A stretch of DNA of 64,000 nucleotides, taken from assembly GCA_029261055.1 (NCBI GenBank), contig JAJDCA010000014.1:143984-207983 (forward strand), in the 5' to 3' direction. How positions within the stretch are numbered: position 1 is the first letter of the stretch; the number at the start of each line of letters is the position of its first letter. The DNA comes from Candidatus Omnitrophota bacterium. GTDB taxonomy: Bacteria; Omnitrophota; Gorgyraeia; Zapsychrales; Zapsychraceae. The position numbers and the translations under genes are program-made. A model generated the notes under the pieces. The model did not search any database. It saw nothing but the letters and a program-made list of their open reading frames with translations, and was not told the DNA's origin. Positions 16,607-60,974 of the stretch are shown piece after piece.

Positions 16607-16850
16607 TCAAGTAGAGTAATAAGGGATAAACAAAGGTAAACTACCTGTGAGGGTGGGGCACAAAACTATAGGGTCCCAAGATTAGTGTTGGGATAGCCAA
16701 GTTGCTACCGATAAGTATCGGTGTGAATCATGTGGACCTATTCTACGAAAGAGGTGGAATAGGTTTATTTTTTGGAAGGGAAGAAAAAGAGGACGTGAAA
16801 AGTAATAAAAACACAAATAAACATAAACACAAATTAGGAGGGAAGTAACA

Positions 16851-17279
16851 ATGGAATTGAGAAAATTAAAATCTAAAAAAAGTGGTTTTACATTACTGGA
16901 AATCATCGTGGTTATTATCATTGTTGGTGTTTTAGCTAGTTTAGCTTTACCGCGATTATTTAATACCATTGAACGAGCTCGATCGACAGAAGCATTTACA
17001 TCAATAGGCGTAATTCGTAAATCAGTTGAAAGATGTCTCTATCAAAATAATGCCGCTTTCTGTGGGAATATGACTAATTTAGATCTTCCTGATCCAGGGG
17101 CAATCCCAGGGGCGCATTTTACGTACACTATTGCTAATGTAGCTTTGCCGAACACTGTGACAGTAAAAGCTACACGTCTTGCTAATGTGGATGGTGGTGT
17201 TGCCACAGATTGGATTCAGCTTAAGGTGGATGGTACGGGTATTTTTCGAACCAGTACAACAATTTATGGTGTAAGATAA
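16851..17279 (+). CDS. pilA: Type IV major pilin (class III prepilin signal)
   Basis: Leader MELRKLKSKKSG, cleavage between G and F in GFTLLEIIVVIIIVGVLASLALP with Glu at +5. 142 aa with a C-terminal Cys pair. Confidence 0.85.
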   Translation: MELRKLKSKKSGFTLLEIIVVIIIVGVLASLALPRLFNTIERARSTEAFTSIGVIRKSVERCLYQNNAAFCGNMTNLDLPDPGAIPGAHFTYTIANVALPNTVTVKATRLANVDGGVATDWIQLKVDGTGIFRTSTTIYGVR

Positions 17280-17295
17280 AAAAGGTAAGGGGTCG

Positions 17296-17778
17296 GTGGA
17301 CTATCCATCGATCCCTTATATAAATTTTATGACAAATAATAAATTAAAGATTTCGAAAAAAGGATTCACCTTGGGAGAATTAATGGTGGTGGTGGTGATT
17401 GTGGGCGTCCTTGTGTCCATCGCCGTACCACAATATGGTGCAGCCATTGAAAGGATGAGGGCAGCTGAGGGGATTCAGATTCTAACCTCCTATTTACACG
17501 CTCAAGAGAGTTTTCGGCTAAGAAATGGTGGGACTTATGCCACAAACCTTCAAATTAATCAATTAGATATAATTTTGCCAACAGGTGCTGGAAGCTATTT
17601 TAATGCGCCTACTATCGCTAGTGCTAATCCAATTGTTAGTATTGCACGAAATGGTACTCAAAATCCGACTCCAAATTATGCGCTTACGATTAGTTCAACA
17701 GGGATTGTTTCCTGTAACGATGGAGGTGCAATGACCACTTGTACAAGATTGGGCTGTTCTGCAGGTGTCTGTAATTAA
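17296..17778 (+). CDS. Type IV pilin paralog
   Basis: KKGFTLGELMVVVVIVGVLVSIAVPQY prepilin N-terminus with a 22-aa leader if translation starts at 17296 (RBS aagggg 6 nt upstream). An alternative ATG at 17329 gives a shorter leader. C-terminal disulfide loop CTRLGCSAGVC. Confidence 0.8.
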   Translation: MDYPSIPYINFMTNNKLKISKKGFTLGELMVVVVIVGVLVSIAVPQYGAAIERMRAAEGIQILTSYLHAQESFRLRNGGTYATNLQINQLDIILPTGAGSYFNAPTIASANPIVSIARNGTQNPTPNYALTISSTGIVSCNDGGAMTTCTRLGCSAGVCN

Positions 17779-17808
17779 GCTAAAAATATTGAAGGGAATG
17801 TTAAGATT

Positions 17809-18246
17809 ATGATAATAAATTTTGTGAAAAGAAAGAAAGCCTTTACAATTACAGAACTTATGGTTTCAGTCATCATTATTGGGGTTATTGCTGGATTTGC
17901 GATACCTGATTATTTACGGTCAGTGCGGCGTGCTCATCAACAAGATATGTCTATGCAGCTCACGGCCTTGCATGCAGCGAGTATGATTTATCAATCTCAG
18001 AATGGAACATTTCTTGTAGAGACTAGTTTGCCATTAAATGGAACACCATCTATTAATAACGATTTGGGCATTAATATTATTTCTACAGATGGGACAAATT
18101 ATTCGTACACAAGTGATGGAACTAATTTTACAGCCACAGCAATTTGGAATTTTTCAACTGGCCCAGTAACTTTTCAAGTAGACCAAAGACCTATTTCAAC
18201 AACATCTGTTCCTCCGAATCCTCAATGTACGACAAACTGTTTATAG
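17809..18246 (+). CDS. Type IV pilin-like protein (Ala at -1 of the cleavage site)
   Basis: KKAFTITELMVSVIIIGVIAGFAIPDY: a hydrophobic N-terminal helix with Glu at +5. C-terminal CTTNC pair. Confidence 0.7.
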   Translation: MIINFVKRKKAFTITELMVSVIIIGVIAGFAIPDYLRSVRRAHQQDMSMQLTALHAASMIYQSQNGTFLVETSLPLNGTPSINNDLGINIISTDGTNYSYTSDGTNFTATAIWNFSTGPVTFQVDQRPISTTSVPPNPQCTTNCL

Positions 18247-18271
18247 TGATTTTTGAAGGAAGAAAGAAAAT

Positions 18272-18616
18272 ATGTTAAAAAATTTAAAAAAAGATGGGTT
18301 TTCATCCTTTGTAGAAATTATGATTTCAGCCGTTGTTTTTGCTATTGCTGCGGTTGGAATGTTTTCTATGGTTTCCAAACTCAAACCAAAGGGAGATGCT
18401 TCTGCTAAAAAATTAGAGGCCATGTATGCCGCTAAGAGCATCCTTGATGAGCTTCGTGGAAGCGTGGATGCCCGTACATGGTTAACAGGACCAAATGATT
18501 TATTGCCGGGTGGCGGTGTTCATTCAAAAACAAGAGGTGACGTTACAGTCGAGTATACTGTTACAGATGTTCCCGGTTCAGACCTTCGTCAGGTGAGTAT
18601 GAATGTGATATGGTAA
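18272..18616 (+). CDS. Minor pseudopilin-like protein
   Basis: KKDGFSSFVEIMISAVVFAIAAVG: a prepilin-like N-terminus (G-F, with Glu displaced to +6). 114 aa. Confidence 0.5.
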   Translation: MLKNLKKDGFSSFVEIMISAVVFAIAAVGMFSMVSKLKPKGDASAKKLEAMYAAKSILDELRGSVDARTWLTGPNDLLPGGGVHSKTRGDVTVEYTVTDVPGSDLRQVSMNVIW

Positions 18617-18721
18617 TACCAAATCCATTTATTAAAGTATCCTATTTGAATGGTGCATTTCTCGTTAAAGCGTCGAGAAATACGAAATTAAAATCGGTAT
18701 TATTTAATGGAATTGGTATAG

Positions 18722-19300
18722 ATGAATACTAATCATAAAAAAGCAATGACGCTTGTTGAACTTCTTCTGGCTACAACTTTAATAGGCATTGTTATGTTAG
18801 GCGTTATTGCTGTAACTACCGCAATCAAACAATTTCAACTTTCAGGGGCAGACATGAATATTTCTGCGATGCAAATAACAGGAGCACTCAAACGTATTGC
18901 CAGAGACGCTTCTATTGCCGTCAATTATCCTAACTCACCAGGGACGATTATTGATGCGGGTAGCAATAGTGTTTCTTTTCGTCAGGACCAGGATAGTGAC
19001 CTTTTAACCCAGGCCGATGCCATTTGGGTTATTTATACGGATGGCAGTGATGGGAACCCTCAAACGATCCATAGATGCCAACAGAATGCCCCCAACTCAG
19101 ATCCTGACTTTGGCAATGAATGTTCGCCTGCGAATGCTCAATTTATTATCAACAAAGTCGTTGCCTTTACGCCAGCTTTTGATGCTACGACAGGTTTGTT
19201 TACTGTTGCTGTCACCACACGCAATGACCCGAATAAACCTTTTCATCCCACAAAGAATCCAGAGTTTCAATTAAGTACCGATATCCGATCATATTATTAG
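18722..19300 (+). CDS. Minor pseudopilin-like protein
   Basis: KKAMTLVELLLATTLIGIVMLGV: an N-terminal hydrophobic helix with Glu at +5 relative to an A|M junction. 192 aa. Confidence 0.5.
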   Translation: MNTNHKKAMTLVELLLATTLIGIVMLGVIAVTTAIKQFQLSGADMNISAMQITGALKRIARDASIAVNYPNSPGTIIDAGSNSVSFRQDQDSDLLTQADAIWVIYTDGSDGNPQTIHRCQQNAPNSDPDFGNECSPANAQFIINKVVAFTPAFDATTGLFTVAVTTRNDPNKPFHPTKNPEFQLSTDIRSYY

Positions 19301-50261: not shown

Positions 50262-50780
50262 ATGGGATTAAGACATCGAAAACAGTCACGTGAAACTGAA
50301 GAAGATAAGACGATTGAAATTAGTGCTCAGATGCAGGGGTCACTGGTATTTAAAGATCCGATTGATTTGAAGATAAATGGCAATTTTGATGGGAGCCTGG
50401 AAGCCAGAGGGACGGTTACGATTGGAGAAACATCTAGCGTTGAGGCTGATGTCAGTGCAGACAATATTGTCATTGCGGGAAAGATTACAGGCAATATTAA
50501 GGCGAGCAAAATGTTGGTGCTTATGCCAACAGCTGTCTTAAAAGGAGACATTTCGACACCCAAGTTGAATATTGTTGAAGGCGCCATTTTTCATGGCAAT
50601 TGTCAAATGGTGGATGATTTATTAGGGATTGATGAAGTGTCGAGATATCTTGAAATTGACATTAATGAAATTGAAGAGCTCGCAAAATCTGGTCGTATCC
50701 CTGGGTTAAAAAAGGGAGAAGATTGGAAATTTGAACGCAATCAAATCGACAATTGGGCTTCTTCGGGAAAATTGAAATAA
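50262..50780 (+). CDS. Bactofilin-domain protein with a C-terminal excisionase-type (HTH_17-like) helix-turn-helix
   Basis: Residues about 20-120 are beta-helix bactofilin repeats (GTVTIGETSSVEADVSADNIVIAGKITGNIKASKMLVLMPTAVLKGDISTPKLNIVEGAIFHGN). The C-terminus VSRYLEIDINEIEELAKSGRIPGLKKGEDWKFERNQIDNW fits the excisionase-family HTH pattern. Confidence 0.7.
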   Translation: MGLRHRKQSRETEEDKTIEISAQMQGSLVFKDPIDLKINGNFDGSLEARGTVTIGETSSVEADVSADNIVIAGKITGNIKASKMLVLMPTAVLKGDISTPKLNIVEGAIFHGNCQMVDDLLGIDEVSRYLEIDINEIEELAKSGRIPGLKKGEDWKFERNQIDNWASSGKLK

Positions 50781-50784
50781 TAGA

Positions 50785-50890
50785 ATAAAAGAAGCAAAGG
50801 TGTAAAGAGGCAAGATGCAGAGACAAAAAAGTCAGTAGAGATTTTAAATCTTTGCTTCTTGTTTCTTATTCCTCTGCTTCTCTAAAAAAA
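50785..50890. repeat. Copy C of the dispersed AG/CT palindromic element
   Basis: aaagaagcaaaggtgtaaagaggcaagatgcagagacaaaaaa ... ctttgcttcttgtttcttattcctctgcttctctaaaaaaa. Ends directly at the ATG of the following gene. Confidence 0.6.
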
Positions 50891-51193
50891 ATGACGGCAT
50901 CCCAATTCATATCCGTAAGAGAAACAGCCCAAATACTTTCTGTATCTGAGAAGAAAGTGATGGAAATTATTGCCGACCGAAAGTTGCAAGCCTACCGCAT
51001 TGCCAATAAATTTTTACGTCTCAAAAAAGCCGATGTATTGTTTTTGCGTAATTCCGGCAACATCGCCACCGAAACCATGGCTCACGCATACACCTCCTCC
51101 GAAAAAATAAAAGACTTTTTCTATTTTAACGACTTTTACCTACTCTCCGCCGTCTTCGCCAGCGGCTTGCTGTACGTCATATTTTTTACATAA
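50891..51193 (+). CDS. Small tail-anchored protein: N-terminal excisionase-type HTH plus a C-terminal TM helix
   Basis: MTASQFISVRETAQILSVSEKKVMEIIADRKLQAYRIANKFLRLKKADV (HTH_17-like), then a linker and the C-terminal helix LLSAVFASGLLYVIFF. ATG at 50891 preferred over the TTG at 50852, which lies inside the repeat. Confidence 0.5.
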   Translation: MTASQFISVRETAQILSVSEKKVMEIIADRKLQAYRIANKFLRLKKADVLFLRNSGNIATETMAHAYTSSEKIKDFFYFNDFYLLSAVFASGLLYVIFFT

Positions 51194-54200: not shown

Positions 54201-54757
54201 AAAAAGTGCCTTTTCCTATTGGGGTAGACTTTTTTGTTAAGTTTAAACAAAAACAGTTTTTAGATAGGTATTCTTACCGAATTATTAAGGATCAGCATCC
54301 AAGATATCCGAGAAATATTAATCAATCAGTTCGTCATTTCAATTTGTCAAAAAATGTATTTTCCTCATTAAGAGAAAATAATCCTCTTGAAATTGAATAT
54401 GAAAAGTTAGAACGCCCGTCATTTATTGATGAAAGCAACCAAACTGCTTTTTATGATTCGGCACTTCTTGCAGACGGGCTTAATGAGAAATTTGGCGGGA
54501 TTGATTTGACTGCGGATAGTTTGCCTTTGCAGGCACGTGGAGAGGGAATTGAGTTTAAGTTTCCTTCTAACAGTAATATTCCTTGTTTCGATGATGACAA
54601 CGACGGTACCTGTGACCGTATTGATGTAGAAGGGCTTGCTACTATGTCCATCACGGGATTTCGGCCGGAGTTTTTTGAAATTGTGCCGGTGAATAGTGTG
54701 TCGGGATGGTTGGGCATTTCAGTGCAACGACCAACCATCCCAGATCTGTCTTTATGA
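51284..54757 (+). CDS. Giant hypothetical protein (1157 aa) with an N-terminal signal or anchor sequence and a central CX3CX2C motif
   Basis: Long uninterrupted ORF. N-terminus MKKMCKIIIFRVFVWLIFFIFMVQG. About 560 aa in: SKNCVHQCLFCNV (CX3CX2C), followed about 40 aa later by SDPLHY, which recalls the radical-SAM GGEPL position. No other family is recognisable by eye. Confidence 0.6.
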   Translation: MKKMCKIIIFRVFVWLIFFIFMVQGIGPLPLSHAQTSMPIEGSGVQGLRLGLTPMFTPVLLKGIKIFPSNPFQFEFMVGAGNTVVQGDLLKKESSRLVKYFLTSLTVPDADLWVNLSPDEPDRIIPEQFGQTEMGRDLLAQDYRLKQITASLMYPEDELGEEFWDQVYEQVYQEYGTMNIPIDMLNKVWIVPEKAVVYENVEMNTAFVLESRLRVMLEEDYVGEGLAPSRITGRRKARPYSNSNKISTAVIRKIIIPAIEREVNHGQGFSKLRQIYHSLILATWFKRNLKKSILSQIYVGQNKITGVDIHDKQAKDKLYHQYLKAFQKGAYNYIKEDYDPVTQQIVPRKYFSGGIELAMLSSGKKVFEALDAAMQVTKEISDQLLKEITGKTASFKVPVKILPESGKDTKGTNLGIFTAKKQKKFRNIINPKKVKTAEDLVRIIEQIKKDNIPKERNYSKYSRVLITGISILSHELYQPYLNDLARIKLNELNTLEIDIQESDFNWTKDMLHRLQVLANFIPTIENPNEDLFIDVFAGFTDEQIKILANSGDFLDLQLSKNCVHQCLFCNVSKNTIQGAPRHMPFSLAIKIAKRIRREGQSNVSLYRKSDPLHYHDKVINATYGDVARHLIPLGYYLSTITHGDTGVLGEENMREIVKRFPPSLWGLEFSLNAYYANVKRYAIKKVNGEIDAAEDDEVRQKLVKPYVDNFASLLVELIPQVEVDIRDLFYGKKVEKILEGAGLQFALSVVKEMQSVQNKIWEDVGKIVFEKTGKYIPVKHDFEFTSGIRFTYDMVWESDAVSFLKELGVKEDIIRGINKSTQRGLDDRTEGENFVLQINTNGSLSLRVAEAEDLRFRTFEEMFTSADAEGFRSFLEVIKIVLKTNSFKFDKQMDAKVLRKDVSKGVLKKLFKNALNSSEDIEKFLINRSYLVKGSTLQTFHYFEVLFGFFYSKEDMLADLKNKKFEDMFEKLKKVPFPIGVDFFVKFKQKQFLDRYSYRIIKDQHPRYPRNINQSVRHFNLSKNVFSSLRENNPLEIEYEKLERPSFIDESNQTAFYDSALLADGLNEKFGGIDLTADSLPLQARGEGIEFKFPSNSNIPCFDDDNDGTCDRIDVEGLATMSITGFRPEFFEIVPVNSVSGWLGISVQRPTIPDLSL

Positions 54758-55069
54758 TTTCTTTTCTAATACTTTTGTCAATTCCCCGCTATTGTGCAGT
54801 TCTATGAGGATGTCACAACCGCCGACAAATTCGCCGTTGGCGTAGAGTTGGGGGATGGTAGGCCAGTCGGAGTATTCTTTAATACCTTCACGAATGTCTT
54901 GGTCATCAAAGATGTTGAATGTTTCAAATTTAACTTTGTATTGGTCAAGGATATCCACCGCCGTTGCCGAAAATCCACATTGAGGAAAGTCGGGTGTGCC
55001 TTTCATGTAGAGAAAGATGGCATTGGATTTGATTTGGTCTTCTATTTTTTGTTTAAGTTCATCGGTCAT
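54752..55069 (-). CDS. grxD: Monothiol glutaredoxin (Grx4/GrxD family, CGFS active site)
   Basis: 105 aa containing FLYMKGTPDFPQCGFS and DILIELHNSGEL. Confidence 0.85.
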   Translation of the reverse strand: MTDELKQKIEDQIKSNAIFLYMKGTPDFPQCGFSATAVDILDQYKVKFETFNIFDDQDIREGIKEYSDWPTIPQLYANGEFVGGCDILIELHNSGELTKVLEKKS

Positions 55070-55083
55070 TGTGTCTCCTTTTT

Positions 55084-55178
55084 TAAAAGAAGCAAAGATG
55101 TAAAGAGGTAAGAGGTAGAGAAAAAATCATGTTGATGAAGCTTTTCTCTGCTTCTTGCGCCTTTGCTTCTTGTTTCTT
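55084..55178. repeat. Copy D of the dispersed AG/CT palindromic element
   Basis: aaaagaagcaaagatgtaaagaggtaagaggtagagaaaaaa ... cttttctctgcttcttgcgcctttgcttcttgtttctt. Lies between the bolA stop and the grx RBS on the minus strand. Its arms are nearly identical to copy C but arranged in a different order. Confidence 0.55.
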
Positions 55179-55182
55179 AACA

Positions 55183-55443
55183 CTAGAATCCATATTGTGT
55201 TTTTACTTCATTCCATTTATTGGGGGTAAACGTCCTTAACCCTAGGGCATGGACGGATTGTTTGAATTCTTCCTTTAAAGGTTTCATGACCATTTGATGC
55301 TGCTTAACAAGAGGCAGGCCTTCAAAGTTGGGGCTGATGACAATGGCTTCAAAATGCTGGCCGTCGTCTTTGGGTTCCATCACATGGGCCGTGGCACCTG
55401 TAACGGAGGATTCAATCATTTGTTTGAGGTCTTCTGACATCAT
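55183..55443 (-). CDS. bolA: BolA-family protein
   Basis: 86 aa with a BolA-like fold signature (IVISPNFEGLPLVKQHQMV...ALGLRTFTP). Adjacent to a CGFS glutaredoxin, its usual partner. Confidence 0.75.
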   Translation of the reverse strand: MMSEDLKQMIESSVTGATAHVMEPKDDGQHFEAIVISPNFEGLPLVKQHQMVMKPLKEEFKQSVHALGLRTFTPNKWNEVKTQYGF

Positions 55444-55477
55444 AAAATATTCCTTTCGAGTGAACCGTACACAAACC

Positions 55478-56425
55478 TCATGCAGACCCCCGAGGTTTGT
55501 GTCTGGTTACAAAGTCAATAACAGTATCTTCTAAACGGCCGTTGTTCAGCCGGTTGATTTCTTGTAAACAGGTAGGGGAGGTGACATTGACTTCGATGAG
55601 ATGATCACCGATTACGTCGATGCCTACAAAGTGCAACCCCAGTTTTTGTAAATGCGGTTTGAGAATTTGAATGATTGCCTCATCCCGCTTGGTTATTTCG
55701 GCGGGCATGGGTTTGCCGCCGGCAAAAAAATTGTTACGGTGTTCATCTTTTGCGTGCACACGCAATACCGCTCCGAGAGGGTCGCCATTAAGAAGAAGGA
55801 TGCGTTTATCGCCTTGGCTGGCTTCAGGTAAACATTGTTGCAGGATAATATCCTGAGCGCCATTGTGTGTTAAGGTTTCGATGATGACGCCAATATTTGT
55901 GTCGCCTTCACGGATACGAAAGATACCTTGGCCACCGTAGCCATTGATGGGCTTGGTGACGATTTCTTTTTCTTCAGATAAAAAGGCAAGGATGTCTGCT
56001 TTATTGCGTGTGATCAGGGTTCGGGGAATGAGCGAAGAAAATTGTGTCACCCAAATTTTCTCATTCGTCGTACGAATACCATTGGGGCTGTTCATGACAA
56101 GAATGCGTTCAGGCAATAAATCCAAGAGCCAGGTATTAAATAAATATTGAGCATCAAAAGGTGGATCATTGCGGATGAATACGGCATCAATGCTGTCTTC
56201 CGTTAAGGTAGCCATTTCATGTTGAATAAAGGGCTGTTCAGCGACTTGCTGGGGTGTGACTTCCGTGCAAGTAAAATGAAGTTTCCCATTTTTTTGTGTC
56301 AGTCCACCATTGTGGCAGGCATACACCTTGTGCCCTTTGCGATGGGCGCCGAGCATTAGAATAAACGATGTGTCTTTCTCCATGATGACGGTATGGAGAG
56401 GGTCCATGAGGAATACAAAATTCAT
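55478..56425 (-). CDS. gshB: Glutathione synthetase (prokaryotic ATP-grasp GshB)
   Basis: Aligns along its length with E. coli GshB: MDPLHTVIMEKDTSF, IRNDPPFD, LITRNKADILAF, GDKRILLLNGDP, VGIDVIGDHLIEVNVTSPTC. Confidence 0.9.
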   Translation of the reverse strand: MNFVFLMDPLHTVIMEKDTSFILMLGAHRKGHKVYACHNGGLTQKNGKLHFTCTEVTPQQVAEQPFIQHEMATLTEDSIDAVFIRNDPPFDAQYLFNTWLLDLLPERILVMNSPNGIRTTNEKIWVTQFSSLIPRTLITRNKADILAFLSEEKEIVTKPINGYGGQGIFRIREGDTNIGVIIETLTHNGAQDIILQQCLPEASQGDKRILLLNGDPLGAVLRVHAKDEHRNNFFAGGKPMPAEITKRDEAIIQILKPHLQKLGLHFVGIDVIGDHLIEVNVTSPTCLQEINRLNNGRLEDTVIDFVTRHKPRGSA

Positions 56426-57726
56426 TTTACATTTTCTTCCAGGCGAATAATTTCTCGATGCGCGGCAATGGCGGCAATACGGGCTAAAATGCGGTAGACG
56501 TCAAAAACATTGACATCATGATGAACTCCGCAGTCACCGTATTTACTGAGATGCGGACACATTTTTTTAAAGACCATGCCTTGGGCATTCAAATTGTCGC
56601 GCTGACCTTTACCGGCATGCGAACGGTAAAATCCACCGACAAGATTATTTTCAATTTGGTAAATGCACGCTTCACTGACTTCTTGTTCGATATTGTAAAT
56701 GGTGGACACCCCTTCCTGCAGAAGGAATCGGTCAATGATTTGTGCGCTTTTACCTTTGTACATCTTGTTACGATTTTTTCGGTTGAGCGTGAGAATATCT
56801 TTGGCATCCTCGATGGGAAGCACGCCCATGCCGTATGTTCCGGAATTTGATTTTAAAACAAGGTAAGGCTTTTCACTAATGTTGTGCTCTTTGTATTTGG
56901 CTTTAATATTGTTCAGTAAATCGGTAGCCGTATCAGCTAAAAGGGTGCGGTCATTTTCTTGATTAATGTTAACGTTGTTTACAACAGAGAATAAGCAGGA
57001 AAAAATCCAAGGGTCAACGTTAAGAATTTTGGCAAACTCTTCGATGAGATCTTTGGTGTGATCGAAATGATGCGACTTAAGGCGCGAATGCCAACCCGCC
57101 TGAATAGAAGGGTAGATCGGCACTTTAGCATTTTTTAAAACATCCGGAATTCCAGTCGTCAAATCATTATTCATGATCATCAAATCAAATTGTTGATGTC
57201 CTGCTTCGTAATCCGCTAAGATTTTTTTGAAACAGTGGATTTTAACGGGATGACCTGTGGCGGTCTCCAATTCAATCGCATGAGCCTTTTCACAAAAGCT
57301 TGGTTGAACGGTTAGAAAGGTTGCGATTTTGACATTGAATCCAGCACGTTCAATGATTTGCTGTAGGATGCGGACGTTTTCCAAATACCAGGCATTACGT
57401 GTGTGCTCTTCGGCAATAATGAGAATATTCTTACATTGCGGCATACGATTAAGGACTGCTTTACGGAGAAATTCGACGGAGTCAGTCAGACCGTGTTCAC
57501 AGAGATTGTTAAATCCGGCGGGAAAAATATTGGTATCCACGACGGCCATCTTAAATCCAGCATTACGAATGTCCACGGAAGAATAGAGAGGGAGTTCTTT
57601 GGCTTCTTCGTACGATTCCAGGAAGCGAAGGATTTCAGCTTGTTTATTTTGGATGCTTTCAATCAGTTGAGGCATCGGGTGCGTTGAATGCAAATGTGAT
57701 GTTTTATTCATGCCTGTATTATCCAT
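56422..57726 (-). CDS. gshA: Putative glutamate--cysteine ligase (compact GshA-family type); assigned mainly from context and size
   Basis: 434 aa, overlapping gshB by 4 nt (translational coupling). It does not resemble E. coli GshA; the call rests on its similarity, from memory, to the about 400-aa bacterial GshA-type family. Confidence 0.5.
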   Translation of the reverse strand: MDNTGMNKTSHLHSTHPMPQLIESIQNKQAEILRFLESYEEAKELPLYSSVDIRNAGFKMAVVDTNIFPAGFNNLCEHGLTDSVEFLRKAVLNRMPQCKNILIIAEEHTRNAWYLENVRILQQIIERAGFNVKIATFLTVQPSFCEKAHAIELETATGHPVKIHCFKKILADYEAGHQQFDLMIMNNDLTTGIPDVLKNAKVPIYPSIQAGWHSRLKSHHFDHTKDLIEEFAKILNVDPWIFSCLFSVVNNVNINQENDRTLLADTATDLLNNIKAKYKEHNISEKPYLVLKSNSGTYGMGVLPIEDAKDILTLNRKNRNKMYKGKSAQIIDRFLLQEGVSTIYNIEQEVSEACIYQIENNLVGGFYRSHAGKGQRDNLNAQGMVFKKMCPHLSKYGDCGVHHDVNVFDVYRILARIAAIAAHREIIRLEENVK

Positions 57727-57783
57727 AAAATAAGGGGATTGTCGAGGCTAAAATGTTGGGGCTAACCGTAAACGAACCAGGTA

Positions 57784-59025
57784 CTACTTGGTTTGTTTGT
57801 GGTTTACAAGTTTTTGCACGACCATGCTGCCGATGGTGTCGCCTTCGACATTGACGGTGGTGCGGATAGCATCAAGGATGCGGTCGATGGGGAGAAGGAT
57901 GGCAATCGCTTCAGCCGGGAGGCCGACGGATTGCAGGACCATCACCATCGTTACCATGCCGGCACTTGGAATGCCTGGTGCACCAATGGCGGCAATGATG
58001 GCGGTGAAAAAGACAACGAGTTGTTGAACAATATTAAGATCAATACCCATGATGTTGGCCACAAAAAGAGCAGCCACGGCTTCGTAAAGAGCGGTGCCGT
58101 CCATGTTAATGGTGGCCCCTAAGGGCAGAACAAATCCAGCCACATCTTTGTCGACTTTTAAATTGTTTTCGACACAACGCATGGTAATCGGCAGTGTCGC
58201 AGAACTTGAACTTGTTGAGAACGCTGTTACGAGAGCTTCACGAATTCCGCCTAAGAATTTTAAAGGGCTGAATTGTGTGACGGCAAACAAGATTGTTGGT
58301 AGAGTTACAATGCCATGAAATAGTGTAGCCCCAATCACGACGGCCATGAATTTACCTAGAGCAGACAGGAGTGTGACGTCTTGTGTCGCAATTAATTTTA
58401 TCAAAAGGGCCATGATGCCGATGGGGGCAATACGCATGATCCAGCCGACCATCATCATGATGAGCTCAAAAAATTCATTGAGAATGTTAAGGATATTTTT
58501 AGCTTTTTGACCAGCCATGACAAGGGCAATACCTAAAAGTAAGGCAAATAAAACGGTGGGTAAAACTTTTCCTTGAGCCATGGCTGCAAAAGGATTCATA
58601 AAGAGATTAGAAAAAAATGTTTGAATGAATTGAGAGAGCGTAACAGAGTCAGCAGAAAATGAGGCCATTGCATCCTGAAATAAAGCAACTTCAAGGCCAA
58701 CGCCGGGTTTAAATACGTTAACGACAATCAAGCCCAGGAGGACAGAAAGGGCTGTTGTGGAAATAAAATACACAAGGGATAGCTTCCAAACACGATCCAT
58801 TTGCGCGTGTGCCCGCAGGTTAGCAATACCCACGGTAATAGAGGTAAAGACGAGCGGAATCAAAATCATTTTTAAAAGATCAATGAAAATACCGCCTGCA
58901 ATTGTGCAGCCGTAAAGCGTGGGGGAGTAGACCGCATGTTCAGCTCCCAAGCGGCTTAAAATTAGCCCACCGAAAATGCCAATTACGGCGCCAGTCAGGA
59001 TTTGGAAGTTTAAGGAAAGTTTCAT
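57784..59025 (-). CDS. Dicarboxylate/amino acid:cation symporter (DAACS/SDF family)
   Basis: 413 aa with eight TM segments and re-entrant loops (SSSSATLPITMRC, GATINMDGTALYEAVAALFVANI). The substrate is not assignable; a TcyP-like cystine transporter is possible. Confidence 0.8.
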   Translation of the reverse strand: MKLSLNFQILTGAVIGIFGGLILSRLGAEHAVYSPTLYGCTIAGGIFIDLLKMILIPLVFTSITVGIANLRAHAQMDRVWKLSLVYFISTTALSVLLGLIVVNVFKPGVGLEVALFQDAMASFSADSVTLSQFIQTFFSNLFMNPFAAMAQGKVLPTVLFALLLGIALVMAGQKAKNILNILNEFFELIMMMVGWIMRIAPIGIMALLIKLIATQDVTLLSALGKFMAVVIGATLFHGIVTLPTILFAVTQFSPLKFLGGIREALVTAFSTSSSSATLPITMRCVENNLKVDKDVAGFVLPLGATINMDGTALYEAVAALFVANIMGIDLNIVQQLVVFFTAIIAAIGAPGIPSAGMVTMVMVLQSVGLPAEAIAILLPIDRILDAIRTTVNVEGDTIGSMVVQKLVNHKQTK

Positions 59026-59134
59026 TCAGAAATGGCCTCATTATTTAATTTCTTTAATGATTTAAAAATAGAATAGCAGTTTTTCTTAAAAGTACAACCA
59101 AAATTCTTACAGTCAGGGGTAATTTGAGTGGGCC

Positions 59135-59172
59135 TAGTTGTGAAATTGCCCTGCGGGGCAACTTCACAAGTC
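59135..59172. promoter_or_regulatory. Inverted-repeat operator-like element, copy 1 of 2
   Basis: TGTGAAATTGCCC-tgcg-GGGCAACTTCACA: 13-bp arms with one mismatch around a 4-bp spacer. Lies in the divergent intergenic region between the DAACS transporter and tolC. Confidence 0.5.
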
Positions 59173-59316
59173 TGTTAAAATTAAATTTTTTGTGTTAAAG
59201 GTGGGGTAGGTTAGGTTTAATTATTCTTTGAATAATGATGTGTCTTTATGTTGCTAAAATCTTGATTTGTACATTTATTCGTCGGTATTTTTAAGATTAT
59301 TTTCATTAGAATTAAT

Positions 59317-59340
59317 AAGTACGTACGCGCGTACGTACTT
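59317..59340. repeat. 22-bp perfect palindrome of alternating purine/pyrimidine
   Basis: AGTACGTACGCGCGTACGTACT (59318-59339) is its own reverse complement; 24 bp if the flanking A/T pair is included. The 16-bp core acgtacgcgcgtacgt is strictly alternating purine/pyrimidine. Confidence 0.7.
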
Positions 59341-59364
59341 TATTGTCGGGAATATGGGGTGGAA

Positions 59365-59400
59365 AGTTATGAAATTGCCCCGTGGGGCAACTTTACAACT
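59365..59400. promoter_or_regulatory. Inverted-repeat operator-like element, copy 2 of 2
   Basis: TATGAAATTGCCC-cgtg-GGGCAACTTTACA, about 90% identical to copy 1 as a direct repeat 226 bp downstream. The core TTGCCC-N4-GGGCAA is perfect in both copies. Confidence 0.5.
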
Positions 59401-59423
59401 AGGATTTTATTGAGATTTATTGA

Positions 59424-59458
59424 AACCGTAAACACACCCCGGGGGTCTGTTTACGGTT
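59424..59458 (+). promoter_or_regulatory. Strong hairpin 44 nt upstream of the tolC ATG
   Basis: aaccgtaaaca-(13-nt loop cacccc ggggg tc)-tgtttacggtt: a perfect 11-bp stem with no T-tract after it. Confidence 0.5.
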
Positions 59459-59501
59459 AGTTTACACTTGACATTAAATTGCATGTAATTAAGATGAAGG
59501 C

Positions 59502-60974
59502 ATGTTTTTTACTAAAAATTTAATTGTATTAATTATTTTTAGCATCATTTTTTTAGGGGGATGGGTTGAAGGGGAATGTGCGGATTACACTCTCTCCCTG
59601 GAAAAAACAACGCAGCTGGCCCTTCAAAATAATTTTGACATTCAACTCGCGAAATACGATGCTTGGATTGCCCGGACGGACAAAAAAGTAGCGGAGTCTA
59701 TTTACGACACTATTTTTGAGGCCGAAGTCCAATACCGTGACAATCAGAAAAAACGCACCTCGACAATCATTGGTACGCAGGCCTTGGACAATGATTACAA
59801 TATTGGACTTTCAAAAAAATTACCTACCGGGACAACACTTGAAGTTGATCTAATGAACAGTCGTAACTTTACAGATTCAGTATTTACTACGTCACCCTTA
59901 ACGCATGATTCGACCTTAGGGATGACAATTACGCAGGAATTAGGAAAGAATTTTTTTGGCCTTCGTGATCGTTGGGGTATTAAGATTGCGTTGGTGGATA
60001 TTGAAAATAGTGAGTACACGTCACTTGAGAAAATTGAAGAAGAAATTTCTGATGTACAGAAGGCGTATTGGGATTTAGTGCTTCAGATTGAACGTGTTAA
60101 AATTGAACAAGACATGGTGGATCAAGCCAAACGTTTGTACGATTTGCATCAGGAAAAATTGAAGGATGGTCTGGTGGAGATGCCGGATGTTTTGGCGTCG
60201 CAAGCAAATTACGAAAAGAGTAAAAATGATTTGATCTTTGCAGAGAATCAAGTGCATGCCAAAGAAAATGTGCTGCGATTGCTTTTAAACATTTCCGATG
60301 ATCACATCCGTATTCTTCCGACAGACACCTTTGCGCTTCCTGAACTCCAAAGGCCATTAGCGCCTACCCTTAAGAAAGCTTTTGAAAACCGTCGTGATTA
60401 CAAGCGGGCGGTTAATGATGTGAAGTCGAAGGACATTCAGCTAACCGTTAAAAAAAATAATTTGTGGCCGGAAATTAATTTAACGGCTTCTTTAGAGCGT
60501 AACGGCCTCGGAGATCATTTTAAACCGGCGGTTGAAAATATTACGAGGGAAGACAATCCAAATTTATTTGCTGGGCTGACCATTAACATTCCATTAGAAA
60601 ATCGTGCGGCGCGCGGAGCAAAGAAAGCGGCTGAATTAGAAAAAGCCAAGACTTTGGTGGCTTTAAAATTGCTTGAACGCAAAATTACCCTTGAGGTTGT
60701 CGATCAAGTCCGTGACAGTAATGTGTTTGCTGAGCTGGCCGACAACAGCGAACACATCGCCAATCTGCAAGCGCAGAAGTTGGAAGAGGAAGGTAAGCGA
60801 TTCCGTCAGGGCCGTTCCGACACAGATACCCTCATTCGTTTTCAGAAAGATGTTGTTCAGGCAAGAGCCGAAGCGGCCGCAGCCAAGCACCGTTACCATG
60901 CCGCGATGGTGGATTTAGAAACCAGAAGCGGGGTGCTTTTGGGGAAGTATTTTGACTTAAGTGCTAAGTGGTAA
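59502..60974 (+). CDS. tolC: TolC-like outer membrane efflux protein (OEP family)
   Basis: 490 aa with a signal peptide and two OEP repeats with coiled-coil segments. Immediately upstream of an RND pump gene. Confidence 0.8.
   Translation: MFFTKNLIVLIIFSIIFLGGWVEGECADYTLSLEKTTQLALQNNFDIQLAKYDAWIARTDKKVAESIYDTIFEAEVQYRDNQKKRTSTIIGTQALDNDYNIGLSKKLPTGTTLEVDLMNSRNFTDSVFTTSPLTHDSTLGMTITQELGKNFFGLRDRWGIKIALVDIENSEYTSLEKIEEEISDVQKAYWDLVLQIERVKIEQDMVDQAKRLYDLHQEKLKDGLVEMPDVLASQANYEKSKNDLIFAENQVHAKENVLRLLLNISDDHIRILPTDTFALPELQRPLAPTLKKAFENRRDYKRAVNDVKSKDIQLTVKKNNLWPEINLTASLERNGLGDHFKPAVENITREDNPNLFAGLTINIPLENRAARGAKKAAELEKAKTLVALKLLERKITLEVVDQVRDSNVFAELADNSEHIANLQAQKLEEEGKRFRQGRSDTDTLIRFQKDVVQARAEAAAAKHRYHAAMVDLETRSGVLLGKYFDLSAKW

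Follow-up and report, generated by a model that had tools for sequence, protein, structure and literature searches.

What are two near-identical copies of a long palindrome doing in the intergenic region between two divergent operons of an Omnitrophota bacterium, and are they signals to which a protein binds or the two ends of something that was once inserted there? An earlier note on this DNA had preferred the first answer, a duplicated operator for a dimeric transcription factor, and had offered a MITE-like insertion as the alternative. To the left of the gap that holds the palindromes lies an operon of SDF(DAACS), gshA, gshB, bolA and grx on the minus strand; to the right lie tolC and then a gene for an RND pump, the neighbours that had been named before. 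Throughout, "the window" is the whole 64-kb stretch of DNA that was analysed. The features needed for what follows are these:

57784-59025, minus strand: SDF/DAACS transporter gene, left flank of the gap.
59026..59501, no strand: divergent intergenic region of 476 bp that hosts the candidate element.
59134..59137, no strand: left CTAG, candidate target-site duplication or target half-site.
59136-59169, no strand: copy 1 of the repeat, AGTTGTGAAATTGCCCTGCGGGGCAACTTCACAA, a near-palindrome.
59138..59169, no strand: candidate left terminal repeat (copy 1), TTGTGAAATTGCCC-TGCG-GGGCAACTTCACAA, a hairpin-forming palindrome of 14-4-14.
59170..59366, no strand: AT-rich non-coding interior, about 197 nt.
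59317..59340, no strand: inner palindrome, perfect over 24 nt, AAGTACGTACGC/GCGTACGTACTT, ending 24 nt before the right repeat.
59365-59398, no strand: copy 2 of the repeat, AGTTATGAAATTGCCCCGTGGGGCAACTTTACAA, a near-palindrome.
59367..59398, no strand: candidate right terminal repeat (copy 2), TTATGAAATTGCCC-CGTG-GGGCAACTTTACAA, a palindrome.
59399..59402, no strand: right CTAG, partner of the left one.
59502-60974, plus strand: TolC/OEP gene, right flank of the gap, with the RND pump next.

The repeat pair is real and non-random. Two copies of a unit of 34-36 nt lie within 59133-59403 and, as the earlier note had seen, they are direct copies of each other, although their identity is 30/34 positions (88%) and not about 90%, their starts are 229 nt apart and not 226 bp (195 nt separates the copies), and the arms of the palindromic unit are 14-4-14 where 13-4-13 had been read. 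The palindrome between them, given before as 22 bp, is a perfect one of 24 nt. The core TTGCCC-N4-GGGCAA is, as claimed, exact in both copies and is absent elsewhere in the window; allowing one mismatch adds a single match, at 59668 inside tolC, and only copies 1 and 2 match the 28-nt pattern with up to three mismatches. In shuffled sequence the core is expected 0.08 times by chance and the 28-nt pattern 0.00 times.

The palindromic nature of each copy means that the pair can also be read as an inverted repeat of 37 nt with 84% identity (59133-59169 / 59367-59403), which spans CCTAGTTGTG... to ...CAACTAGG. Read as direct repeats the copies show four mismatches, and read as inverted repeats six. 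The stem of copy 1 contains a single A·C mismatch; that of copy 2 has three non-Watson-Crick positions (A·C, G·T and A·C), and the A·C mismatch of copy 1 recurs in copy 2 on the same side, with A in the left arm and C in the right. With a single exception the differences between the copies are transitions, and no change compensates for another. Working back from the two sequences, both would descend from a common ancestral palindrome of 36 nt, AGTTGTGAAATTGCCCCG followed by CGGGGCAACTTCACAACT. The shared A·C asymmetry is, by our own estimate, 10-30 times likelier with direct copies; under true inverted ends, it would need parallel change or end-to-end conversion. Beyond the palindromes themselves the flanks align with scores no better than those of shuffles (p 0.2-0.5). 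Segmental or tandem duplication with decayed flanks was considered and rejected, since an apparent 14-nt 5' extension was lost in the shuffle test (p 0.2-0.5).

The outer edges of the pair carry a second signal. The inverted repeat continues outward, to the left into CCTAG and to the right into CTAGG, and nothing comparable is seen at the inner ends. CTAG is among the most avoided tetranucleotides in this genome: the window contains 43, where base composition predicts 219 and a second-order Markov model 74. The 2.9 kb of intergenic DNA has only four, two of which coincide exactly with the outer edges of the pair; the inner edges have none. Across the window AGTT is preceded by CT in 4 of 299 cases and AACT is followed by AG in 2 of 142, so that the joint chance of CTAG being completed on both outer sides, given the AGTT...AACT ends of the unit, is ~2e-4.

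CTAG-type targets are known for several families of insertion sequence. IS630 makes a 2-bp TA duplication inside a target CTAG (PMC2577343 Table 1; Tenzen and Ohtsubo 1991, as cited in PMC2170065), the IS5-type element MITEPsy1 a 4-nt CTAG duplication (PMC3189936), and members of the IS481 family duplicate NCTAGN and have repeats that start with TGTG (PMC2516522, PMC3053399). The left CTAG could be any of the three, namely TA within CTAG, a 4-nt CTAG or part of NCTAGN. Parsed in the IS630 style, the candidate element would read C-TA-(GTTGTG...TACAAC)-TA-G, and in the IS5 style (CTAG)-TTGTG...TACAA-(CTAG). The IS481-style parse, CCTAGT-(TGTGAA...TTTACA)-ACTAGG, is a poorer fit, its two hexamers being complementary and not identical. 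Since CTAG is itself palindromic, a target duplication is indistinguishable here from an extension of the inverted repeat.

What lies between the ends is compatible with a small non-autonomous insertion. The candidate element measures about 265 bp (261-271 bp, under the approximate 600 bp of a MITE), and it has terminal inverted repeats, each arm itself a palindrome. Its interior holds no credible ORF (those present are ≤48 aa and lack a ribosome-binding context), and no strong sigma-70-like promoter or Rfam family was found there. The gap is the largest in the window and would shrink from 476 bp to ~211 bp without the element; the second-largest, of 292 bp, contains a c-di-GMP-I riboswitch. 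The window is otherwise dense in housekeeping genes, including uvrA, exbBD, a type IV pilus / T2SS cluster, recA-recX-alaS, his genes, secDF, mfd, surA-pdxA-ksgA, gatCAB, ctpA and tsaD. A Pfam search of nearly all its predicted ORFs found no transposase, recombinase or classical one-component regulator in the 64 kb, and we know of no full-length IS with these ends. Complete hairpin palindromes are untypical as terminal repeats of IS630, IS5 and IS481 or of other DDE elements, an observation that speaks against a MITE, as do the A·C asymmetry kept in direct orientation and the absence of a transposase gene from the window.

That asymmetry is what would be expected if the hairpins were recognised in a strand-specific manner, which brings in another kind of mobile DNA: two independent small hairpin repeats spread by a single-strand HUH transposase, either REP-like units or PATE hairpins derived from IS200/IS605. 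Each unit is indeed an imperfect palindrome of 34-36 nt, and the repeats cluster in one tolerant intergenic region that holds two other strong palindromes. A GTAG-type REP head is absent, however, as are RAYT and TnpA genes from the window; there are just two units in 69 kb, with no further copies in the collections searched, and the presence of CTAG at the outer edges alone, with the CCT/AGG extension, indicates that the pair acts as one unit with defined outer ends. We regard this explanation as very unlikely.

Both kinds of mobile DNA raise the matter of copy number. No other copy occurs in the remainder of the window or in L002, the 5 kb that adjoin it, 69 kb in all, and relaxed half-site searches of the window, L002 and all Omnitrophota loci gave nothing beyond chance. 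GTDB species-representative genomes, a collection that does not include the source genome, were scanned with GAAATTGCCC-N4-GGGCAACTT, and JGI metagenomes with ARTTGCCC-N4-GGGCAAYTTYACA; neither contained a true further copy, nor did viral contigs, plasmids or phages. When six-frame translations of both copies were compared with 5.8 billion predicted proteins, none shared even three 5-residue words. As far as can be seen, then, the two copies are the only ones, the source genome being outside the scanned collections. With a few dozen copies in the genome, a MITE family would on average place less than one of them in 69 kb. Family members would nonetheless be expected of a MITE, and the absence of any from the collections searched, which lack the source genome, counts against one.

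The scans did return one recurrent family. The GTDB scan gave 21 loci, 12 of which represent a single ~95-nt element in archaeal MAGs and one Ignavibacteria MAG, whilst 7 of the 10 loci from the JGI scan belong to a family related to it. These elements lie between unrelated ORFs, sometimes twice per contig, and their ends, ...TATAAC and GTTATAC or GTTAGGC, resemble the R''/R' boxes of integron attC sites. Kinship with this multi-copy archaeal and bacterial family was rejected: only the searched core is common, the GTT/AAC polarity is opposite, and an HMM of the family matches the window at model positions 44-72 only. We judge the resemblance to be a chance match, amplified by the family's many copies. 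The palindromes themselves do not form an integron attC site either, for this needs a 5' R'' (RYYYAAC) and a 3' R' (GTTRRRY), and here the polarity is reversed (5'-GTTGTG...CACAAC-3').

Comparison with relatives offers a view of how the gap arose. The databases contain no close relative: the nearest homologues of TolC and SDF are 68% and 81% identical, respectively. In four of the five nearest SDF loci (L037-L040, 76-81% identity, with upstream DNA on the contig) the transporter is preceded on the same strand by ABC_tran and ABC2_membrane genes; the gap from ABC2 to SDF is ≤10 nt in three of these, and in L039 hicAB is inserted between them. In the fifth, L043, the contig ends before the upstream genes. 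On the other side, a marR gene, whose product is 144 aa long, is directly upstream of tolC-RND or fused to it in three of the four relative genomes examined (L034, L035 and L041/L042, the latter two carrying an identical protein), and no MarR was found in the fourth (L036). The ABC-2 genes and marR are both absent from the window, with no remnant of either in the gap, and the gap shows no similarity to any sequence at the relatives' loci. A MarR pseudogene in the gap was rejected after tblastn with the relatives' MarR found nothing, and there is no similarity to the rve-type IS that adjoins marR in L035. Judging from these comparisons, the DNA of the gap is specific to this lineage and lies at a rearrangement junction (a synteny breakpoint), in which case both operons must use new promoters. 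Promoter-like hexamers are present outside the pair, at 59468-59495 (plus strand) and 59432-59404 (minus strand).

Is the marR story then the key to the palindromes? The operator reading that the earlier note preferred would have a dimeric transcription factor encoded elsewhere bind both sites, perhaps loop the 229 bp between them, and co-regulate the glutathione/transporter and efflux operons. There is something to be said for it. The sites are palindromic with a core perfectly conserved in both copies; the promoter region that holds them is divergent, with a start codon ~100-110 nt downstream of each site; their 229-bp spacing corresponds to ~21.8 helical turns, which is near-integral; and the direct-orientation A·C asymmetry fits local duplication. 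The lack of copies elsewhere in any collection searched agrees with it too, and in relatives the efflux operon has an adjacent MarR with a long palindromic operator. This operator, common to L034, L035 and L041, reads ATGCTAA-N3-TTAGCAT, lying over the -10. It bears no relation to the palindromes, and the window matches it no better than chance would, so that a relic of it can be dismissed. The comparison with relatives that had been proposed thus did reveal a regulator next to tolC in three of four genomes, but its operator is of another sequence and nothing at their loci resembles the gap.

Nor does the window supply a substitute. It encodes no TetR, MarR, LysR or similar protein, in agreement with the earlier statement that no regulator is adjacent, and its only HTH proteins are two of HTH_17 type at 50262-51193, ~8 kb from the site; no MarR remnant is present. 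Other features speak against operators as well: arms of 14 bp with a GC-rich centre are longer than half-sites usually are and resemble a structural hairpin more closely, symmetry is eroded by the uncompensated substitutions that separate the copies, and both sites lie upstream of the promoter-like hexamers and not over them. A weak third core, TTGCCCGGACGGACAA, 293 bp downstream inside tolC, counts in favour of the operator reading; no third good site exists in the window. Conservation of the site finds no support in relatives, which have a different gene order, no orthologous promoters and no similar sequence, and the CTAGs at the outer edges (p ~2e-4) are left unexplained. We therefore consider a pair of operators unlikely.

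Two palindromes that face each other across a short segment might alternatively be sites of recombination. In lox, FRT and hix sites, recombinase-binding arms surround a short central spacer of 4-8 bp, and the arms-plus-spacer geometry seen here resembles these. On this account a lox/hix-like pair would flank an invertible or excisable segment of 195 bp, making the locus an inverton that would switch expression between the divergent operons, or the relic of one; inverted repeats do flank ~200 bp of intergenic DNA upstream of an efflux pump, and the region is a rearrangement junction. But with different central spacers (TGCG in one copy, CGTG in the other) strand exchange would be blocked, identity between the repeats is no more than 84%, the 64 kb encode no recombinase and the segment contains no strong promoter. 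Moreover, a Logan assembly made independently from the same sample shows the segment the same way round and runs unbroken through the repeats. Such a function is highly improbable. A broader version, in which an unlinked dimeric regulator or recombinase acts at the palindromes, couples the two operons by looping or by inversion of the 195 bp and has taken the place of MarR after rearrangement removed marR, strikes us as unlikely.

A role in RNA has to be weighed as well, for the gap is rich in structure. Six hairpins in the 64 kb exceeded the threshold of our scan and three of them are in the 59026-59501 gap, copy 2 falling just below the threshold as a fourth palindrome there. Copy 1 has hairpin energies of -19.6 kcal/mol on the plus strand and -21.2 on the minus strand, copy 2 of -13.5 kcal/mol and -17.9, respectively, and the inner 24-nt palindrome one of -12.7 kcal/mol. 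The element might accordingly belong to a long leader of the SDF-gsh transcript, with its promoter to the right, or encode a small RNA, in which the hairpins or a long-range helix of 35 bp would act on stability, processing or termination. Folding is very strong (z -6.2 on the plus strand, -10.1 on the minus strand), the minus strand gives the more stable form of both hairpins, and the promoter-like site on that strand, 59432-59404, would direct transcription through the element toward SDF. On the plus strand copy 2 is followed by AGGATTTTATT, an arrangement that looks like a terminator.

These z-scores are nevertheless unspecific, because any palindrome folds on both strands, and the strand preference comes down to two versus one independent substitutions, which are too few. 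Compensatory changes between the copies are absent, and relatives have no homologous leader. Searches with Rfam, of the window at the gathering score and of the gap at E up to 10, produced nothing relevant, the best match of the gap being MicC with 28.7 bits against a gathering score of 90. A dedicated RNA element has in our view a slim chance of being correct, and transcription of the hairpins would in any case be compatible with a co-transcribed MITE, so the two are not exclusive. Among other candidates considered and rejected were 6S RNA, a retron and a type I toxin, none with Rfam support or suitable ORFs, and a CRISPR mini-array, for which the 195-nt spacing is wrong.

Taken as a whole, the evidence moves the balance from the reading the earlier note preferred, which gained no positive support, to its alternative, which fits better (outward extension to CCTAG/CTAGG, CTAG at the outer edges only, a lineage-specific junction), though it is unproven and the matter is not settled. 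A MITE-like insertion is the best-supported explanation because of the CTAG junctions, the size, the AT-rich interior devoid of ORFs, the position in the middle of the gap and the lineage-specific context. We put at about 0.5 the probability that the palindromes are the terminal inverted repeats of one non-coding ~265-bp MITE or MITE remnant; the figure is only this high because no other copies turned up in the searches, the A·C asymmetry is direct, the ends are palindromic and so is CTAG. Low copy number has a precedent in MITEPsy2, an element of 228 nt with two copies (PMC3189936).

As to how such an insertion might have come about, a DDE transposase supplied in trans, of IS630, IS5 or IS481 type (all with CTAG-type targets), would have placed the element in a CTAG (CCTAGG) site within the promoter region from which the SDF-gshA-gshB-bolA-grx and tolC-RND operons diverge, after which the ends would have diverged to 82-84% identity. 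With ends this far apart the element is probably immobile now, and it probably has no dedicated function, although incidental effects may remain through promoter spacing or through hairpins in DNA or leader RNA. What the data show directly is the repeat with its inverted geometry and its restriction to one pair in the window, the rare CTAG flanks, the missing coding capacity and a gap peculiar to the lineage. We infer four parts of this scheme from the sequence: the CTAGs as a target duplication, a transposase as the agent, the family of that transposase and the present inactivity. Most probably we are looking at a commonplace leftover of transposition at a rearrangement junction, so far in a single copy.

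If the MITE reading is true, the locus preserves an unremarkable trace of transposition in a phylum that is uncultivated and poorly studied, and its main use would be as an annotation note and as a marker of the rearrangement that stripped ABC-2 transporter genes and marR from two operons. Should the palindromes instead be live binding sites, they would show how, in an Omnitrophota lineage that has lost the adjacent MarR, an efflux pump is controlled together with glutathione synthesis.

How does the locus compare with known systems? The Correia elements of Neisseria, REP/BIME and REPIN sequences are short intergenic hairpin repeats that may alter expression incidentally. The repeats described here are likewise short, intergenic and able to form hairpins in DNA or RNA, but such families reach tens to hundreds of copies in a genome and have consensus heads, whereas there are two units in 69 kb here and none in the other collections searched. 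The marR-tolC-RND operator of related Omnitrophota shares with the pair the presence of a long palindrome upstream of an efflux operon; it differs in being a single copy, in lying over the -10 and in having marR adjacent, none of which is found in the window. With lox, FRT and hix sites and with invertons the pair has in common two palindromic arm-spacer sites, a segment of ~200 bp and a location in a promoter region, and it departs from them in its non-identical spacers, repeats that are 84% alike, the lack of a recombinase in the window and the single orientation seen.

The likenesses to insertion sequences and their derivatives are of another kind. As in the ends of IS481-family elements (IS481, ISLxc2), the repeats begin with TGTG and have NCTAGN flanks, CCTAGT preceding TGTGAA and ACTAGG following TTTACA (PMC2516522, PMC3053399); the hexamers here, in contrast, are reverse complements that match at 4 of 6 positions as direct duplicates, and there is no rve transposase in the window. 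MITEs with CTAG or TA targets (of IS630/Tc1-mariner type, or the IS5-derived MITEPsy1 of Pseudomonas syringae) differ from the present element, which is known from one copy with no known cognate IS, in that complete hairpin palindromes such as its 32-37-nt ends are not described for those families, and its ends have no sequence similarity to the published ends quoted in PMC3189936 and PMC2516522. Like this element, these MITEs are 100-300 bp long, non-coding, AT-rich and intergenic, with terminal inverted repeats and CTAG at both junctions (PMC2577343, PMC3189936).

A third strong palindrome, of 17-1-17 geometry (AACCGTAAACACACCCC G GGGGTCTGTTTACGGTT; -20 to -22 kcal/mol), lies at 59424-59458, separated by 20 nt from the right side of the candidate MITE-like element. 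Two divergent promoter-like sites border it or are partly covered by it:

59468-59495, + strand, promoter-like site TTGACA-16-TAAGAT
59432-59404, - strand, promoter-like site TTTACG-17-TAAAAT

Two Logan contigs, assembled independently from the same sample, end and overlap exactly at 59428-59451, within the palindrome. The palindrome could be the actual operator of the tolC gene or mere structure that hampers sequencing. A further palindrome, perfect and 24 nt in length (AAGTACGTACGCGCGTACGTACTT), is found inside the element at 59317-59340, 24 nt ahead of its right-hand near-palindrome (copy 2); it is built from nested GTAC, ACGT and CGCG motifs and is weakly terminator-like on both strands. 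Searches of viral contigs with either palindrome returned no match. In addition, a one-mismatch third copy of the core (TTGCCCGGACGGACAA) is present at 59668-59683, within the tolC coding region and 293 bp downstream of copy 2. Its likeness to the pair is confined to the 6-4-6 core and it is probably a chance occurrence, although it lies remarkably near the two full copies.

Some Omnitrophota have one unbroken ORF of 641-645 amino acids that covers both a MarR DNA-binding domain and the TolC outer-membrane protein. Examples in the tolC loci of relatives are:

L041:1338-3263, MarR-TolC single ORF
L042:657-2582, MarR-TolC single ORF

Proteins P0061, P0093 and P0094 have the same arrangement. At a further such locus, L034, marR and tolC are in different frames with a 14-nt overlap. 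The single ORF could mean that the two proteins are truly fused, that a stop codon has been lost, or that tolC starts internally.

On the other side of the element, the SDF-gshA-gshB-(grx)-bolA-grx cluster (54752-59025) is kept in related Omnitrophota, as seen at five SDF loci (L037-L040 and L043). An ABC-2 transporter pair precedes the cluster in four of these five relative loci and is missing from the SDF locus of the window genome. The junction upstream of SDF seems prone to insertions, since L039 carries an inserted hicAB toxin-antitoxin pair that separates ABC2 from SDF.

Elsewhere in the window, the second-largest intergenic gap holds a c-di-GMP-I riboswitch (16625-16709; 49.7 bits, gathering score 35). 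Directly downstream, at 16851-19300, are four or five genes for pilin-like proteins that carry N-terminal methylation motifs; a T4P/T2SS assembly cluster precedes these genes. Just two helix-turn-helix proteins were detected in the window: a bactofilin domain with a fused C-terminal HTH_17 domain (50262-50780) and, following it, a separate 113-aa HTH_17 protein (50852-51193). Across the whole window, CTAG (43 seen, 219 expected) and TATA (82 seen; base composition predicts 558, a Markov model 264) are strongly avoided, and GTAC is also low (101 seen, 219 expected).

Among the core-bearing loci from GTDB representative genomes, a highly conserved element of ~95 nt (CGTATAACAAAGGGTATCC...GTGAAATTGCCCTATCGGGCAACTTCGGATACCC...CCGTTATAC) is found in L003 (2240-2332), L007, L008, L012, L015-L017 and L020-L023, with a related family in JGI metagenome loci L025-L027, L029-L031 and L033. 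Its hosts are Altiarchaeales, ANME-1, Methanosarcinales and Methanophagales MAGs, together with one Ignavibacteria MAG. It is flanked by unrelated ORFs, sometimes occurs twice per contig and has no match in Rfam. The ends of the element resemble the R'' (..TAAC) and R' (GTTATAC or GTTAGGC) boxes of integron attC sites, and the element probably represents a set of near-identical attC sites common to different domains (compare PMC9668308).
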